From the NCBI RefSeq assembly GCF_988243305.1, contig NZ_OZ547136.1: a DNA stretch of 64,000 nt. The stretch is one strand, 5' to 3'. Positions 3,906 to 12,744 of this stretch are shown piece after piece. The notes under the pieces are model-generated. The model did not search any database. It was not told the DNA's origin and worked only from the letters and a program-made list of their open reading frames with translations. A program made the position numbers and the translations under genes. Position 1 is the stretch's first letter; each line of letters begins with the position of its first letter.

Positions 3906-5585
<1,680 letters not shown>

Positions 5586-5590
5586 TATTT

Positions 5591-5630
5591 TTACAGCCAG
5601 CCGCTAACTTCCTGCTGGCTGTAAAATTAT
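5591..5630. terminator. Hairpin between convergent treF and yhjB (acagccagc / gctggctgt)
   Basis: 9-bp inverted repeat with A/T-rich flanks in the 50-bp gap between the two stop codons. Confidence 0.55.
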
Positions 5631-5635
5631 CCTCT

Positions 5636-6238
5636 TCAGGAGGAGATATTTAACATCATTGCCGCCTGGGTGCGATTTTTCACTTCCAGACGGCGATACA
5701 GGGATTCCAGATGCGCTTTTACCGTTCCGGTACTGATATTCAGCGCCCTGCCGATCTCCTTATTTGATTCGCCCGCCGCTAACATGGTTAAAATCTCCCG
5801 CTGGCGGGCGCTTAACGATTTGAGATCTTTAATGTCCTTTTCCGGCGTCGTCCGCCAGTCTCCAGGCAGAAACATCATCCCCATCGCCGCACTATTTACC
5901 GCCAACGCAAATGTCTCGACGGTTGAATCACGAGGCACAATGGCCAGCACATTAAAATGGATAACTTCCTGTAACCACCGTTTATTGCAATCCGTCGCCG
6001 TAATTAACACCTTAACCTCAGGAAATTGCACCACGGTTTTTTGCAGTAACCAGTAGCAAAACTCACCATCCTGATCGCCATCGAGCATCACTAAGGCTTC
6101 AGGGTAACTTTCCAGCTTTTGCCATAACTCATCTGCCTGACTGGCCCCCTGAATACTCACTCCTGGAATACGTTGCTGTAAACTGATTTTCATTCCATGA
6201 ATAAATATTGACTGCCTGTCAAACATGACTATTTGCAT
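5636..6238 (-). CDS. yhjB: LuxR/FixJ-family transcriptional regulator (receiver-like N-terminus, C-terminal HTH), 200 aa
   Basis: ORF track; C-terminal LuxR-type HTH (LSARQREILTMLAAGESNKEIGRALNISTGTVKAHL). Confidence 0.93.
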   Translation of the reverse strand: MQIVMFDRQSIFIHGMKISLQQRIPGVSIQGASQADELWQKLESYPEALVMLDGDQDGEFCYWLLQKTVVQFPEVKVLITATDCNKRWLQEVIHFNVLAIVPRDSTVETFALAVNSAAMGMMFLPGDWRTTPEKDIKDLKSLSARQREILTMLAAGESNKEIGRALNISTGTVKAHLESLYRRLEVKNRTQAAMMLNISS

Positions 6239-6757
6239 AACTGAATCTCCACCTGAATACGTTAAAAAGACTTAAGTAGTGGAAGGGTATTACCCGCGAG
6301 AAAAAATAAGAATTCGCCATTTGGCGGTGGCCATTCTACAGAGATGACGCGTAGAAAATAGTTACCGATATAAATCGTTACAGCTAAACGCCTGAAATTA
6401 CATGTCAAGGGCACTATTTAAAACAATTTTGAGGATTTCCTTATATTGATGGTTAGTACGCATGCAATTAAAAATGAAATTCCGCGACCACAAGCAAAAA
6501 TAACAAATGGCAATGAGACAAAAATAAGCACAAATAGCCAACACGTCCTCTGTTCACTTTAAAGGGAATCGCTGAAAAAAACTCTCTGTTTAGGGAAATT
6601 CACCTTTCTCATAAAGCTATTCCGCCCTTTTCCTGCTGAGAAATCGCCACATTCGTCATGACAACATTGTGAAACCCGGCATTAGATGTTAGAAAAAACA
6701 ATAAACAATGCGATATGCGCGTTACTGTTTCGCTGTGAACAACAATCGGTCAAAGAA

Positions 6758-7657
6758 ATGGATAAAATTCACGCAATGCAGTTGTTCATCAAAGTCGCTG
6801 AGCTGGAAAGTTTTTCCCGCGCGGCGGATTTCTTTGCTTTGCCAAAGGGAAGTGTTTCGCGCCAGATACAGGCACTGGAACATCAACTTGGCACCCAGCT
6901 TCTCCAGCGCACCACGCGGCGGGTCAAACTCACGCCAGAAGGCATGACCTATTATCAACGGGCAAAAGATGTGTTGAGTAATCTCAACGAACTGGACGGT
7001 CTGTTTCAACAGGATGCCACCAGTATCAGCGGTAAATTACGCATCGACATCCCGCCAGGAATCGCGAAAAGCCTGTTACTGCCGCGTCTGTCAGAATTTC
7101 TCTATCTGCATCCGGGAATTGAGTTGGAGCTGAGTAGCCATGACCGTCCGGTAGATATTCTTCACGATGGTTTTGATTGCGTGATACGCACTGGCGCGTC
7201 ACCGGAAGATGGCGTTATCGCCCGTCCCCTCGGCAAACTGACCGTGGTCAATTGTGCCAGTCCACACTATCTGACGCGCTTTGGTTATCCTCAAAGCCCC
7301 GACGATCTGACTTCGCACGCAATAGTGCGTTACACACCGCACCTGGGTGTACATCCGTTAGGTTTTGAGGTTGCCAGCGTTAATGGCGTCCAGTGGTTTA
7401 AGTCTGGCGGCATGTTGACGGTAAACAGTCGCGAAAACTATCTCGCCGCCGGTCTTGCCGGTCTGGGGATTATTCAGATCCCGCGCATTGCCGTGCGCGA
7501 AGCCCTGCGTGCCGGGAGGCTTATTGAAGTATTACCTGGCTACCGTGCCGAGCCGCTCTCCCTTTCGCTGATTTATCCGCAGCGTCGGGAGCTTTCCCGG
7601 CGTGTAAACCTGTTTATGCAGTGGCTGGCTGGCGTAATGAAAGAGCACCTGGACTGA
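6758..7657 (+). CDS. yhjC: LysR-family transcriptional regulator, 299 aa
   Basis: ORF track 6686..7657; start placed at the internal ATG (MDKIHAMQLFIKVAELESFSRAA) so that the LysR HTH sits at the usual distance from the N-terminus; the upstream ATG at 6686 is an alternative. Confidence 0.88.
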   Translation: MDKIHAMQLFIKVAELESFSRAADFFALPKGSVSRQIQALEHQLGTQLLQRTTRRVKLTPEGMTYYQRAKDVLSNLNELDGLFQQDATSISGKLRIDIPPGIAKSLLLPRLSEFLYLHPGIELELSSHDRPVDILHDGFDCVIRTGASPEDGVIARPLGKLTVVNCASPHYLTRFGYPQSPDDLTSHAIVRYTPHLGVHPLGFEVASVNGVQWFKSGGMLTVNSRENYLAAGLAGLGIIQIPRIAVREALRAGRLIEVLPGYRAEPLSLSLIYPQRRELSRRVNLFMQWLAGVMKEHLD

Positions 7658-7705
7658 CCGACTATACTTTTTAAGAATGACCACGACAGAAGGACAAAAG
7701 AGCGG

Positions 7706-8719
7706 ATGACGCAGGAAAACGAGATCAAACGTCCCACCCAGGATCTGGAGCACGAGCCGATTAAGCAGTTGGATAATAGCGAGAAAGGCGGCAAAGTTAG
7801 CCAGGCGCTGGAAACCGTCACCACTACTGCCGAGAAAGTCCAACGCCAACCGGTTATTGCGCACCTGATTCGCGCAACAGAGCGCTTTAACGATCGGCTG
7901 GGTAACCAGTTTGGTGCGGCTATCACCTATTTCTCATTTTTGTCGATGATCCCGATTTTGATGGTGTCGTTTGCCGCAGGGGGCTTTGTGCTGGCCTCCC
8001 ATCCGATGTTGCTACAGGATATCTTCGACAAAATTCTGCAAAACATCAGCGATCCGACGCTAGCCGCCACGTTGAAAAACACCATCAACACCGCCGTTCA
8101 GCAGCGTACTACCGTAGGGCTTGTCGGCCTGGCGGTGGCGCTTTATTCCGGCATCAACTGGATGGGTAACCTGCGTGAAGCGATTCGCGCCCAGTCACGC
8201 GATGTCTGGGAACGCTCGCCGCAAGATCAGGAGAAGTTCTGGGTAAAATATCTGCGTGATTTTATTTCGCTGATTGGTTTGTTGATTGCACTGATTGTGA
8301 CGCTTTCGATCACCTCGGTTGCCGGTTCGGCGCAGCAAATGATTATTAGCGCCCTGCACCTGAACAGCATTGAGTGGCTGAAACCGACGTGGCGGTTGAT
8401 TGGCCTGGCGATTTCCATCTTCGCCAACTATCTGCTTTTCTTTTGGATCTTCTGGCGCTTGCCGCGCCACCGTCCGCGCAAAAAAGCCCTGATTCGCGGA
8501 ACATTTCTGGCTGCGATTGGTTTTGAAGTGATTAAAATCGTGATGACCTACACCCTGCCATCGCTGATGAAATCCCCCTCTGGCGCAGCATTTGGTTCCG
8601 TGCTGGGACTGATGGCGTTTTTCTACTTCTTCGCCCGTTTGACGCTGTTTTGCGCGGCGTGGATTGCCACCGCCGAATATAAAGACGACCCGCGAATGCC
8701 GGGGAAAACGCAGCGGTAA
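7706..8719 (+). CDS. yhjD: Inner-membrane protein of the YihY/RNase BN-like family, 337 aa
   Basis: ORF track; multiple hydrophobic segments; recognised as YhjD. Confidence 0.92.
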   Translation: MTQENEIKRPTQDLEHEPIKQLDNSEKGGKVSQALETVTTTAEKVQRQPVIAHLIRATERFNDRLGNQFGAAITYFSFLSMIPILMVSFAAGGFVLASHPMLLQDIFDKILQNISDPTLAATLKNTINTAVQQRTTVGLVGLAVALYSGINWMGNLREAIRAQSRDVWERSPQDQEKFWVKYLRDFISLIGLLIALIVTLSITSVAGSAQQMIISALHLNSIEWLKPTWRLIGLAISIFANYLLFFWIFWRLPRHRPRKKALIRGTFLAAIGFEVIKIVMTYTLPSLMKSPSGAAFGSVLGLMAFFYFFARLTLFCAAWIATAEYKDDPRMPGKTQR

Positions 8720-8754
8720 TTCATTGGTTTATAATGCCTGATAAACGCACGGTC

Positions 8755-8800
8755 GATCCCCTCGCCCCTTCGGGGAGAGGATTAGGGTGAGGGGGTACAA
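8755..8800. repeat. GC-rich palindromic intergenic element (cccctcgcccc ttcg gggagagg ... gggtgaggggg)
   Basis: Imperfect inverted repeats of C-rich and G-rich runs 36 bp after the yhjD stop; could serve as the yhjD terminator or be a small intergenic repeat. Confidence 0.4.
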
Positions 8801-9110
8801 GCCAGCCAGAGACCAGGCAATGACATACACATAACCACCTGAAACTACATCTCTTCAGGAGCAAACAATTTCATACCAACTCATAACCCCAGCATATAAA
8901 TCCAGTTGGTAACTTTTATTTAACCTGAAACCAGTTTTATCCACTATTTATAAAATTATGTGAAGCATTTCATAGAAGAAAAATCACTGGCCTAAACATT
9001 ATCCCCTTTTTGCCTGGTTTTTGACCATTTCCGCGATTTGTTACACATTGAAATATCACTTTTGCTGTGCGTAATATGGCTATTCGTTAGCCAAAAAATA
9101 AGAAAAGATT

Positions 9111-10433
9111 ATGCAAGCAACAGCCACAACACTCGACCACGAGCAAGAATACACGCCGATCAACTCGCGTAATAAAGTCCTTGTCGCCTCTCTCATTGGC
9201 ACGGCCATTGAGTTCTTCGACTTTTACATTTACGCCACTGCGGCCGTTATTGTGTTTCCGCATATCTTCTTCCCGCAGGGCGATCCTACGGCAGCAACGC
9301 TCCAGTCGCTCGCCACCTTCGCCATCGCCTTCGTCGCGCGCCCTATTGGCTCTGCCGTTTTTGGTCATTTTGGCGATCGCGTTGGGCGTAAAGCGACGCT
9401 GGTCGCCTCGTTGCTAACGATGGGGATTTCGACCGTGGTGATTGGTCTGCTGCCGGGCTATGCCACGATTGGTATTTTCGCCCCGCTGCTGCTGGCGCTG
9501 GCTCGATTTGGTCAGGGTCTGGGCTTAGGCGGTGAATGGGGCGGTGCGGCGCTGCTGGCGACTGAAAACGCCCCACCGCGCAAACGTGCTCTGTATGGCT
9601 CCTTCCCACAGCTGGGCGCACCGATTGGCTTCTTCTTTGCCAACGGCACTTTCTTGCTGCTTTCCTGGCTACTGACCGACGAGCAGTTTATGAGCTGGGG
9701 CTGGCGTGTGCCATTTATCTTCTCGGCGGTGCTGGTCATTATCGGCCTGTATGTTCGCGTGTCGCTGCATGAGTCGCCGGTGTTTGAGAAAGTCGCTAAA
9801 GCGAAAAAGCAGGTGAAGATCCCGCTGGGTACGCTGCTGACCAAACACGTACGCGTCACGGTGCTCGGTACCTTCATCATGCTGGCAACCTATACGCTGT
9901 TTTACATCATGACGGTCTACTCTATGACCTTTAGTACCGCCGCCGCGCCAGTTGGGCTTGGCCTGCCGCGTAACGAAGTGTTGTGGATGCTGATGATGGC
10001 AGTGATTGGTTTTGGCGTGATGGTACCAGTCGCCGGATTACTGGCTGATGCCTTTGGTCGCCGTAAAAGCATGGTAATCATCACCACGCTGATCATCCTG
10101 TTCGCGCTGTTCGCCTTTAACCCTCTGCTCGGTTCTGGCAACCCGATTCTGGTTTTTGCCTTCCTGCTGCTGGGGTTAAGTCTGATGGGACTGACCTTCG
10201 GGCCGATGGGCGCGCTGTTACCAGAGCTGTTCCCGACAGAAGTGCGTTACACCGGAGCATCGTTCTCTTACAACGTAGCGTCGATTCTCGGGGCTTCCGT
10301 TGCGCCGTATATCGCAGCCTGGTTGCAGACTAACTACGGGTTAGGTGCGGTGGGGTTATATCTGGCGGCGATGGCTGGCTTGACCTTAATCGCCCTACTG
10401 CTGACCCATGAGACGCGACATCAATCGTTGTAA
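9111..10433 (+). CDS. yhjE: MFS transporter (metabolite:H+ symporter family), 440 aa
   Basis: ORF track; 12-TM-like hydrophobicity; MFS motif GHFGDRVGRK. Confidence 0.94.
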   Translation: MQATATTLDHEQEYTPINSRNKVLVASLIGTAIEFFDFYIYATAAVIVFPHIFFPQGDPTAATLQSLATFAIAFVARPIGSAVFGHFGDRVGRKATLVASLLTMGISTVVIGLLPGYATIGIFAPLLLALARFGQGLGLGGEWGGAALLATENAPPRKRALYGSFPQLGAPIGFFFANGTFLLLSWLLTDEQFMSWGWRVPFIFSAVLVIIGLYVRVSLHESPVFEKVAKAKKQVKIPLGTLLTKHVRVTVLGTFIMLATYTLFYIMTVYSMTFSTAAAPVGLGLPRNEVLWMLMMAVIGFGVMVPVAGLLADAFGRRKSMVIITTLIILFALFAFNPLLGSGNPILVFAFLLLGLSLMGLTFGPMGALLPELFPTEVRYTGASFSYNVASILGASVAPYIAAWLQTNYGLGAVGLYLAAMAGLTLIALLLTHETRHQSL

Positions 10434-10445
10434 TAAGAGTGAAAA

Positions 10446-10543
10446 GCCTGATGCGCTACGCTTATCAGGCCTGAATTTCCATACAATATATTGAATTCGC
10501 AAAGATTTGTAGGACGGATAAGGCGTTCACGCCGCATCCGGCA
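10446..10543. repeat. Pair of REP (repetitive extragenic palindrome) units, BIME-like
   Basis: gcctgatgcgctacgcttatcaggcct and gtaggacggataaggcgttcacgccgcatccggca match the classical REP pattern. Confidence 0.8.
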
Positions 10544-10581
10544 TGAACAAAGCACACTTTGCCAACACTCTAAATCTGTTT

Positions 10582-10610
10582 AATTGCCGGATGTCAGACA
10601 TCCGGCAATT
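10582..10610 (-). terminator. Perfect hairpin (aattgccggatg tcaga catccggcaatt) just 3' of the yhjG stop
   Basis: 12-bp inverted repeat 5 bp beyond the yhjG stop codon. Confidence 0.5.
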
Positions 10611-10614
10611 ATCA

Positions 10615-12675
10615 TCACTTCTTCATCTGCGACAAAATTGTCCGGCACTGATTAGCCTCCCCTTCGGAAGGTGAGATCAGCGCCAGTAACGCCGCCGCTG
10701 GCGTAACCAGCGTTGCCAGTGCCGCCGCAACAGCACCACGGGCAATCAACGGCCCGGCTTTCACCCCAGCCTGCGGATTTTTAAATGTCCCACGCACATA
10801 CAGCGGCGAACGCAGCGTGATAATCCGAATCCCTTTACTTTCTGGATCGATAGTCAAATCCAGTTGCTCCGAAGCAAAACTTGCCGTGCCGGTAACATTG
10901 ATCAACGCATTCTCAGTATCAAAAGCAAAAATCTGCGGACGCGCCACACCGTTGGCAATATCCAGATTCGCCGCCGCGCAGTTCACCCGCACCTCATCGT
11001 CACCAAATATCGCACCGACAATGTAGTTGCCGACATTCAGCCCAACAATCTCCATCAGGTTGCGGCTCACCAGCCCGTCATTCATCAGCAGTTTCAGGTT
11101 GCCGTTACTGTTGCCTAAAAGCGCCGCCACCGAGTTACCGCTACCGCGTAGTTCCGCGTCACCGTTCATTTCCCCCAGCGTCTTCTGCATCAGTTCCACA
11201 TCGGGCATCAGTTCTTTCAGTTTCAGCCGACGAGCCTGAATATCTGCCCGCCCTTGCATCGGTTTTTTATCACCTTCCAGATGAATATTCGCCGCAATGC
11301 TGCCGCCCGCCATGCCAAATTTCAGCGGTTGCAGGCGCAGGTCAGCATTTTTGAGGATGATATGAGTAGAAAGATCGCTAATCGGCAGGCTACTGCCATG
11401 CTCAATGCGCCGCCCTTTGAAGCGAACATCGGCATCCATGACGTCCCATTTATCGGTTTCGAAGCGGTCATAAGGCAGCACTTTGCCCGCAGGCTGAACG
11501 CTTTTTTCACCCTTCTTCTGTTCAGACCGTTTCGACTTTTCAGCTCCTTTCCCGGAATCAACGCCAATCAACGGTCCCAAGTCCGCCAGCCGCAATTGCC
11601 GCGACTCGACATCACCTTCCAGTTTTGGCCGTGGCTTGCCGGTGGTATAGACCAGAGAACCGTGGATATCGCTATCGCCAATGCGCCCATTAAAGCCGCG
11701 ATAATCAAAGACCGACGATTTTTCAGTGTCGATTTTCGCTACCAGCCGACCATCCGTTTCAAACGGCGGGGTATCGGGCAGCAGAACGCCCGTCAGTTCA
11801 TAGAGATCACCCAGCGAATCGCCAGAAAATTTAAGCCGTAAATCGACACCACCCATCTTCATTGGGTCATTCACAACGCCATCAAAAGCAACACGGGTGT
11901 TACCAGAGCGGAAATCAGCCTGTACCGGAAACGGCGTCCCTTCGCCACGCAGCGCCAGCATACCGCCTATTTTTCCCGTACCAGTGAGCGGTTCACCGTT
12001 ATAACGTCCCTGCGCCTTCAGGCCAAAAACGTAATCGCCCACCTTTTCTTTATCCGCTTTACCTTTCGATCCAGTAACTTCGCTGAACGGCAGCGGCTTG
12101 CCTAACGGATCGACAAAAATTTCCAGATCCGCTTTGCTTACTTTGTCATCAATGGCGATCCGCCCTTGATCGAACAGAATATTATCCAGCCGAAACGACC
12201 ATGCCGACGGCTTTGCATTCGTGTCTTTGTTGTCATCGTTGGCGAGATTAAAGGTCCAGTTATTGTTCTTTTCAGAGAGGCGAATCAGGCGCGCGTCGGG
12301 CTTTTCCAGTTTGATCCACGGTAGCCAGACCGTTTTGGTCAGCAGCGCCAACGGTGCCAGCGTTGCCTCTACGCGTGGCAAATGCACCATTGTGACTTCG
12401 GGAATATCCGGTGGATTGCCAAGAATGATGTCTTCCGCGTGTATATGGGGCCACGGCACCCAGCTGCGCCAGCCAGTTTCTTGTTTTTGTCGCTCCCACA
12501 CCACGCCCAGATCGCCACGGATAGCGAACGGACGATTCAACTCCGCAGAGACTTTCTGGTTGATGGTCGGTTTGAGTCGATTCCAATCAAAAGTTGCAAT
12601 CAAAATGATCGCCACGACAATCAACAACAAGAAAGCCCCTGAAATCGCAGCGGTTATTTTGCCTGCCTTGCTCAT
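10615..12675 (-). CDS. yhjG: AsmA-family protein, about 686 aa
   Basis: ORF track 10615..12690; start placed at the second ATG (MSKAGKITAAISGAFLLL), which has AGGAAG 9 bp upstream; the ATG at 12690 is an alternative. Confidence 0.9.
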   Translation of the reverse strand: MSKAGKITAAISGAFLLLIVVAIILIATFDWNRLKPTINQKVSAELNRPFAIRGDLGVVWERQKQETGWRSWVPWPHIHAEDIILGNPPDIPEVTMVHLPRVEATLAPLALLTKTVWLPWIKLEKPDARLIRLSEKNNNWTFNLANDDNKDTNAKPSAWSFRLDNILFDQGRIAIDDKVSKADLEIFVDPLGKPLPFSEVTGSKGKADKEKVGDYVFGLKAQGRYNGEPLTGTGKIGGMLALRGEGTPFPVQADFRSGNTRVAFDGVVNDPMKMGGVDLRLKFSGDSLGDLYELTGVLLPDTPPFETDGRLVAKIDTEKSSVFDYRGFNGRIGDSDIHGSLVYTTGKPRPKLEGDVESRQLRLADLGPLIGVDSGKGAEKSKRSEQKKGEKSVQPAGKVLPYDRFETDKWDVMDADVRFKGRRIEHGSSLPISDLSTHIILKNADLRLQPLKFGMAGGSIAANIHLEGDKKPMQGRADIQARRLKLKELMPDVELMQKTLGEMNGDAELRGSGNSVAALLGNSNGNLKLLMNDGLVSRNLMEIVGLNVGNYIVGAIFGDDEVRVNCAAANLDIANGVARPQIFAFDTENALINVTGTASFASEQLDLTIDPESKGIRIITLRSPLYVRGTFKNPQAGVKAGPLIARGAVAAALATLVTPAAALLALISPSEGEANQCRTILSQMKK

Positions 12676-12744
12676 CGTTCGCTTCCTCATATTCTTCCTG
12701 TGCCAGTCCTAAAGATAGTCCAGCCAGGCGGAAAATGAGGCAGC

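Follow-up and report, generated by a model that had tools for sequence, protein, structure and literature searches.

What is the short GC-rich element that lies just downstream of yhjD in this stretch of Escherichia coli DNA, and does it do anything for that gene? A preliminary description of the whole 64,000-nucleotide stretch (hereafter the window) had noted a segment of imperfect inverted C/G-rich runs in this position and had offered two readings of it, membership of a small intergenic repeat family or a terminator for yhjD. Here we conclude that the segment is very probably a singleton 'type A, one-mismatch' copy of the repeat called BoxC, PIT or TMECO, carried as a passenger structural repeat at the 3′ flank of a gene. 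The family is already known, and the yhjD copy is real but ordinary and of low interest.

BoxC is a dispersed intergenic repeat of E. coli, known since the 1990s (Bachellier et al.). Holder et al. (2015; NAR 43:10126, PMC4666352) renamed a motif 'earlier described as BoxC' as TMECO, and according to their account Hoyne et al. 2000 had meanwhile re-discovered it under the name of PIT element. They give the consensus 5′-CCCTCNCCC-N3-6-GGGNGAGGG-N3-GGGNGAGGG and 23 copies in MG1655. Subtypes are distinguished by the second loop (TTA in type A, CCG in type B), each with or without one mismatched triplet ('mm'), and type A mm is the commonest subtype in K-12 (13 of 23). An independent survey counts 22 members of E. 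coli BoxC with a 50-nt consensus, and the earlier literature gives 56 bp and 32 copies. The boxC of lambda nut and rrn sites and the boxC of the pneumococcal BOX element share the name only; their sequences and functions differ from those of E. coli BoxC.

Identity of the element downstream of yhjD

The organism of the window is E. coli: positions 8000–9600 are 100% identical to strain TUM1886 and are matched in 5422 of 5426 complete E. coli genomes. The element contains a 39-mer, CCCCTCGCCCCTTCGGGGAGAGGATTAGGGTGAGGGGGT, on the + strand at 8758–8796, in the intergenic region between yhjD (inner membrane protein; 7706–8719, + strand) and the downstream gene yhjE (MFS transporter; 9111–10433, + strand). 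This core begins 39 nt past the yhjD stop codon and the conserved unit that surrounds it 26 nt past the same codon; the yhjE start codon is ~300 nt beyond the element. The preliminary description had located the segment downstream of yhjD at 8755–8800, which is correct for the 39-mer but too narrow for the conserved unit, which extends over about 8746–8807.

Little else at the locus coincides with the repeat. A 47-aa open reading frame with a TTG start (8721–8864, minus strand) overlaps it on the opposite strand and is presumably spurious. The promoter scan returned promoter-like sites only far from the element, and a sigma-70-like site at 9048–9077 (+ strand; TTGAAA, 18 nt, and a TATAAT-like TAATAT), ~35 nt 5′ of the yhjE start, may from its sequence be the yhjE promoter, well apart from the BoxC element. 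An Rfam scan of 8000–9600 gave chance-level matches only; the best one overlapping the element was Antizyme_FSE, which scored 18.6 bits (E = 0.85) where the gathering score is 40.

Within the 64-kb window the element occurs once. In whole genomes it is not single-copy, the finding that had been named as contrary to a repeat family: a 61-mer around the element is found in 5425 of 5426 complete E. coli genomes, at a median of 18 places per genome (range 1–33), and at 19 places in K-12 strains, versus the 23 published. The proposal of a small intergenic repeat family was therefore right, the family being BoxC/PIT/TMECO with about 20–30 copies per E. coli genome. Paralogs from strains without a copy at the yhjD locus align to window positions 8747–8805 with 86–88% identity over 56–58 nt. 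The best K-12 paralog found by BLAST is the alx-sstT copy, which corresponds to the published TMECO nos. 12 and 13 and thus ties the BLAST family to TMECO.

Direct comparison with the published motif leads to the same assignment. The window copy matches the TMECO consensus at 23 of 24 specified positions, with loop lengths of 5 and 3 in that numbering, and its sole miss is a G>A at 8781; K-12 TMECO no. 7 and the window copy differ at 2 of 36 positions. When the three-block pattern was relaxed at one base, it matched once in the window versus not at all in 100 dinucleotide shuffles. With TTA at 8782–8784 and G at 8764, the copy is of the type A mm subtype. Given the paralogous copies, we regard the BoxC identity of the segment as effectively settled on sequence grounds. 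A chance GC-rich palindrome that belongs to no family was considered and rejected: its single occurrence in the window and a plain DNA hairpin indistinguishable from shuffles (z = +0.5) would suit such an origin, but the genome copy number, the consensus match and the absence of the pattern from the shuffles refute it, and we give it practically no credence.

At the yhjD locus K-12 has REP elements, which is why this locus does not figure in the list of 23 K-12 copies. The part of the PMC4666352 supplement that was searched names neither yhjD nor yhjE. The same part, which includes a table of 823 sites, has no match to the sequence with A at 8781 and 43 occurrences, at various loci, of the form with G.

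Architecture of the repeat unit

The whole BoxC unit is ~60 nt long (about 8746–8807, + strand), as delimited by the paralog alignment and by flank conservation, which in alignments of 5 and 15 copies extends about 13 nt to either side of the core. The copies retrieved were those at alx-sstT (K-12), recA-recX, flgG-flgH and ybdD-cstA, plus ten K-12 copies taken by coordinate. Column conservation in the 15 copies defines the left flank, CGCACGGTCGATC (8746–8758, + strand; family consensus GCACGGwCrGTC), and the right flank, GTACAAGCCAGCC (8795–8807, + strand; family consensus GAACAGGCCAGCA), is partly conserved, more weakly than the left. The core between them is invariant in the copy alignments.

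This core is built of three blocks and two loops, all given here on the + strand. Block 1, the pyrimidine strand CCCTCGCCCC (8759–8768), was placed by pattern match and triad register, and the G at 8764 is the usual 'mm'. Loop 1, TTC (8769–8771, from the register analysis), varies among copies. Block 2, the central purine strand GGGGAGAGGA (8772–8781), can make 8 of 10 Watson-Crick pairs with block 1, and is followed by loop 2, TTA (8782–8784), which defines type A as set out in PMC4666352. Block 3, GGGTGAGGGG (8785–8794), is a mirror repeat of block 2 and has the place of the third strand of a purine-motif triplex: in the register analysis it is reverse-Hoogsteen-compatible at 9 of 10 positions. 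Block 3 also complements block 1, with one G.T/G.U wobble.

The inverted C/G runs that first drew attention to the segment are real, the arms at 8758–8767 and 8785–8794 being 90% complementary; the imperfect inverted runs are nevertheless only part of the design, and the three-block, triplex-type architecture that defines the element had been overlooked. If only Watson-Crick pairing in DNA is considered, the segment makes a hairpin of −9.2 kcal/mol, which is not more stable than those of shuffles (z = +0.5), and a strong palindrome is therefore rejected as its defining property. The special feature of the segment is its third block, the mirror repeat of the second.

The derived substitution at 8781

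The yhjD copy shares with the BoxC/PIT/TMECO family its three-block core, the type A loop 2 (TTA) and the 'mismatch' G of block 1, as well as conserved flanks, a unit of about 56–60 nt, an intergenic position and strain-variable loci. It differs by the G>A substitution at 8781 (+ strand), the lone departure from the TMECO consensus, because of which it misses the strict published pattern. Block 2 ends in GGA in the window versus GGG in 14 of 14 paralogs, and the orthologous copy at the yhjD locus of strain E28 has G at 8781. The exact G form is present in 95 genomes and the A form in 469; orthologous copies with G match the consensus exactly. Because paralogs and orthologous copies (E28; the 95 genomes) have G, the sequence comparison identifies G8781A as a derived polymorphism in the lineage of the yhjD locus.

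This substitution removes a terminal triad, leaving 8 of 10 complete triads in the window copy versus 9 of 10 with G at 8781; the remaining miss is the G.A 'mm' at 8764/8776. It also explains the lack of a canonical G-quadruplex motif (four runs of at least three G, loops of 1–7 nt) in the window copy, which has three such runs where the G form has four. The energy of the sense RNA hairpin is unchanged by G8781A.

Potential for an intrastrand triplex

In the class II register, block 1 forms Watson-Crick pairs with block 2, and block 3 lies antiparallel on block 2 through G.G, A.A or T.A contacts. This succession of pyrimidine, purine and mirror purine, with G.G-C, A.A-T and T.A-T triads, is also that of H-DNA and other purine-motif class II triplexes; the BoxC family differs from these in that no triplex has been detected for it in vivo, and the yhjD copy in that it is short of one terminal triad. 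Type A mm oligonucleotides form an intrastrand triplex in vitro with a Tm of 74 °C, as judged by CD and NMR, and consensus copies stop polymerases in vitro (PMC4666352). In the same study, DMS footprinting gave no sign that the triplex guanines are protected in vivo, and when the complement was present in vitro the duplex won and no triplex signal was seen. For these two reasons the triplex in cells is only a candidate. An intrastrand triplex of the yhjD variant is likewise a candidate, which comes from the computed register and from analogy with the consensus oligonucleotides studied by CD and NMR.

GC skew on the + strand stays negative from one end of the window to the other, which makes the triplex-capable strand the leading-strand template; it is also the non-template strand of yhjD. 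Were this + strand to become transiently single-stranded, it could fold back into a purine-motif intrastrand triplex with 8 of 10 triads intact. That the leading-strand template is less exposed during replication we count against a structure-driven reading.

A strain-variable slot occupied by BoxC or REP

The region that holds the repeat differs between strains. Alignments delimit a variable block at about 8715–8827 that contains BoxC in the window and REP alleles in other strains. At yhjD-yhjE the BoxC allele is found in 642 of 5426 genomes (11.8%), and about 88% of E. coli strains have REP elements instead. Specifically, K-12 and O157:H7 have a REP pair (BIME) in this slot, strain 536 has a truncated first REP plus a REP, and YZ22PE68 has a single REP.

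Two details of the block edges were observed. The block begins inside the last sense codon of yhjD (window 8714–8719), which reads CGG (Arg) here and CCT (Pro) in K-12, and for this reason the C-terminal residue of YhjD differs between WP_000191259.1 and WP_000191257.1 (K-12). On the other side, a 20-nt indel at 8846/8847, some 50 nt past the end of the BoxC unit, sets the window apart from K-12, O157, 536 and YZ22PE68, all of which carry CTCKTYCCCAGAGCCTCTTYAG-like sequence there; this indel is part of the same variable patch.

Outside this patch, the window and K-12 are close. Divergence is confined to about 8715–8860: counted in 200-nt bins, differences from K-12 number 66 and 40 in 8601–9000 and 0–14 elsewhere in 5001–12700. 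Since the differences pile up only in 8601–9000, they point to a local replacement and not to a large recombination tract. This is the kind of 'intergenic change' that Holder et al. report around their motifs (PMC4666352), where sequence variability was raised in 56 strains. The likeliest cause of such sharply local replacement and indel variation would be a transient non-B structure on the displaced + strand. This link between motif and instability is correlative, and a mobile repeat that inserts and excises would account for it equally well, as would relaxed constraint; the last is conceivable in such intergenic slots because REP sites vary too.

REP elements and BoxC are alike in being GC-rich imperfect palindromes dispersed in gene 3′ flanks, in their local variability, and in occupying the same slot at yhjD. 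Their sequences are unrelated, and BoxC alone has a third, mirror-repeat block. A REP is a two-arm palindrome that makes a strong DNA hairpin, with z = −4.35 for the K-12 REP pair versus +0.5 for BoxC. REPs have known binding proteins and a known associated transposase (RAYT); for BoxC we know of neither a binding protein nor an associated transposase. The preliminary description had seen no classical REP pattern in the segment and had contrasted it with the one after yhjE, and on both points it was accurate: with up to two substitutions allowed, the REP consensus (GCCGGATGCGGCG/GCCTGATGCGACG type) is absent from 8700–8900, and an exact GCCGGATGCGGCG lies on the minus strand at 10530–10542, between yhjE and yhjG.

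Orientation of copies, termination and RNA structure

The 15 type A copies examined all lie between genes, each of them next to at least one gene 3′ end. In this partial sample, restricted to type A, 6 loci lie between convergent genes, 9 are co-directional and none is divergent, and the co-directional singletons of the same sample are oriented sense to the upstream gene in 4 cases and antisense in 3. Antisense copies are found inside operons at pstA-pstB and yihS-yihR. Published analyses found no orientation bias of BoxC/TMECO copies (PMC4666352), with which this mixed orientation agrees; it is therefore evidence against a strand-specific RNA signal.

These observations bear on the second of the original readings, that the element is an intrinsic (Rho-independent) terminator of yhjD. 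The likeness lies in a GC-rich stem-loop that starts soon after the stop codon, at a distance of 39 nt, and no other terminator-like site is present between yhjD and yhjE. The BoxC element differs from Rho-independent terminators in having no U tract: no clean U-run follows it, as had been remarked from the start, and the stem is followed by the tail GUACAAGCCAGCC. Moreover, the consensus scan found no terminator-like site in 8600–9200, copies stand antisense inside the operons just named, and PIT elements tested with reporters acted neither as promoters nor as terminators (Hoyne & Maher 2002, as cited in PMC4666352). We consider a terminator role very improbable, and with the missing U tract, the empty scan and the negative PIT assays the proposal of a terminator for yhjD loses its footing.

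As RNA in the yhjD sense the element folds with −30.1 kcal/mol (z = −2.2), block 1 pairing with block 3 and the 'mm' G forming G.U, and the antisense RNA fold is weaker (−24.6 kcal/mol, z = −0.7); blocks 1 and 3 are partners in the minimum-free-energy folds of RNA and DNA alike. The family 'mismatch' G forms a G.U with block 3 in 14 of 15 copies. Consensus folding of the 15 copies gave invariant pairs, no covariation and no conserved outer stem; because the pairs never vary in these copies, covariation gives no support for or against RNA structure. Read-through of yhjD would thus yield an RNA with a predicted hairpin of −30 kcal/mol (block 1 with block 3, one G.U), which would not terminate transcription because it has no U tract. 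By analogy with REP hairpins it could shield the 3′ end.

The main rival to a passenger repeat builds on this hairpin and takes the element to be a stabiliser of the mRNA 3′ end, a REP-equivalent that would block 3′–5′ exonucleases and lengthen the half-life of yhjD mRNA. The stability of the sense RNA fold (z = −2.2) relative to the weaker antisense fold, the G.U retained by the 'mismatch' G in 14 of 15 copies, the REP hairpins that fill the same slot in about 88% of strains, and the gene 3′ end that adjoins each of the 15 copies examined are all consistent with such a role. The mixed co-directional orientation (4 sense versus 3 antisense) and the lack of published orientation bias speak against it; invariant pairs lend it no covariation support, and a hairpin alone does not account for the conservation of block 2 or of the mirror symmetry between blocks 2 and 3. 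On this modelled structure and these counts, we consider a stabiliser possible but unlikely. The element would instead be a genomic passenger tolerated at gene 3′ ends, and not a dedicated signal of yhjD.

Distribution beyond E. coli chromosomes

The core is not peculiar to E. coli. The arrangement CCCTC(T/G)CCC, loop, GGGAGAGGG, loop, GGGTGAGGG is repeated in unrelated lineages, each time with flanks of its own. In our scan of species-representative genomes with the core pattern, the matches listed come from a few MAGs that precede the Enterobacteriaceae, and they serve as examples and not as a taxonomic census. An Archangium MAG supplies more than 70 of these copies, an unclassified MAG (GL140) at least 28 and a Polaromonas MAG at least 20; further matches come from Contendobacter, from a Pseudomonadota MAG and from one Bacteroidaceae contig. 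The three free core positions in the matches listed are almost always T/A/T or G/A/T, so that the 'mismatch' form G/A/T recurs across lineages. The flanks in Archangium read gatc-core-agcacatcc; in GL140 there are two subfamilies inside a longer repeat, and in Polaromonas some copies lie in an element with acgacagtgaattgg...ctgtcatga ends. Because 3610 copies in 262 proteobacterial genomes had already been published (PMC4666352), these cross-lineage matches are an extension and not a discovery.

No TMECO motifs on plasmids were reported in 2015 (PMC4666352). The 61-mer matches 419 PLSDB records, from Klebsiella, Sinorhizobium, Rhizobium, Azospirillum, Escherichia, Aeromonas and others. Several multi-megabase 'plasmid' records among these are evidently mislabelled chromosomes, and others are small genuine plasmids, for example NZ_CP083871.1 (18 kb), CP088538.1 (22 kb) and NZ_AP023208.1 (70 kb). 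The phage collection is essentially free of the repeat, with only three matches (89.8% over 49 nt): MG065686.1 and MG065691.1 (Campylobacter phages A18a and A11a) and OR845188.1. The repeat is odd in the two AT-rich Campylobacter phage genomes, where it may be contamination or misassembly.

Does the repeat move?

Another reading is that BoxC is a mobile, non-autonomous element of the MITE or REPIN kind, whose units, singly or as inverted A+B pairs, would be moved by a trans-acting enzyme; the yhjD copy would then be a fairly recent insertion over a REP. Several features fit such mobility: the copies are dispersed and near-identical, they occur on plasmids, their presence varies between strains at both yhjD-yhjE and recA-recX, and the same core is found inside lineage-specific longer repeats in Polaromonas and the unclassified MAG. 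In addition, type A and type B units form inverted doublets, which are arranged tail-to-tail at alx-sstT and head-to-head at flgG-flgH. At recA-recX the copy is accompanied by a decayed type B partner (ACTCTCACCTCGATCCTCT). An origin of the singletons as truncated A+B doublets was considered and dropped, because doublets exist in both arrangements and each unit has flanks of its own.

Against mobility, most copies were assigned to stable homologous loci across 56 strains (PMC4666352), and folding and alignment of our 15 copies detected no terminal inverted repeats beyond the core. The filled and empty states compared at two loci had neither a clean insertion junction nor a target-site duplication: at yhjD-yhjE a whole block has been replaced, and at recA-recX the comparison shows about 174 additional nt, the edges of which are fuzzy. 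These comparisons therefore provide no evidence for clean transposition. Nor is an associated transposase known to us for BoxC. Taken as a whole we judge a mobile element of this kind improbable, and keep to the passenger repeat.

A related idea is that the core itself is a recognition structure for a widespread enzyme or binding protein, for example in a REP/RAYT-like mobilisation or for a structure-specific nuclease. We think this slightly less probable again than mobility. If it were true, the yhjD slot would record an exchange between competing BoxC and REP repeat systems and not passive decay.

Implications

To our knowledge, no function has been assigned to BoxC in about 30 years, and our search of the literature after 2015 found no work on the function of BoxC/TMECO. 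For annotation of the window, the segment downstream of yhjD should be labelled as a BoxC/TMECO repeat and as neither a terminator nor an unclassified palindrome. Beyond this label, the use of the locus lies in its variation. The yhjD-yhjE slot is a natural allelic series, comprising BoxC with G, BoxC with G8781A, a REP pair, a truncated REP and a single REP, set between flanks that are about 97–98% identical to K-12. This series could test the effects of the repeats on mRNA 3′ ends, on the expression of neighbouring genes and on local mutation and deletion rates. Within it, because G8781A loses a triad and the G-quadruplex motif and leaves the energy of the RNA hairpin unchanged, the substitution could help to separate the effects of hairpin, triplex and G-quadruplex.
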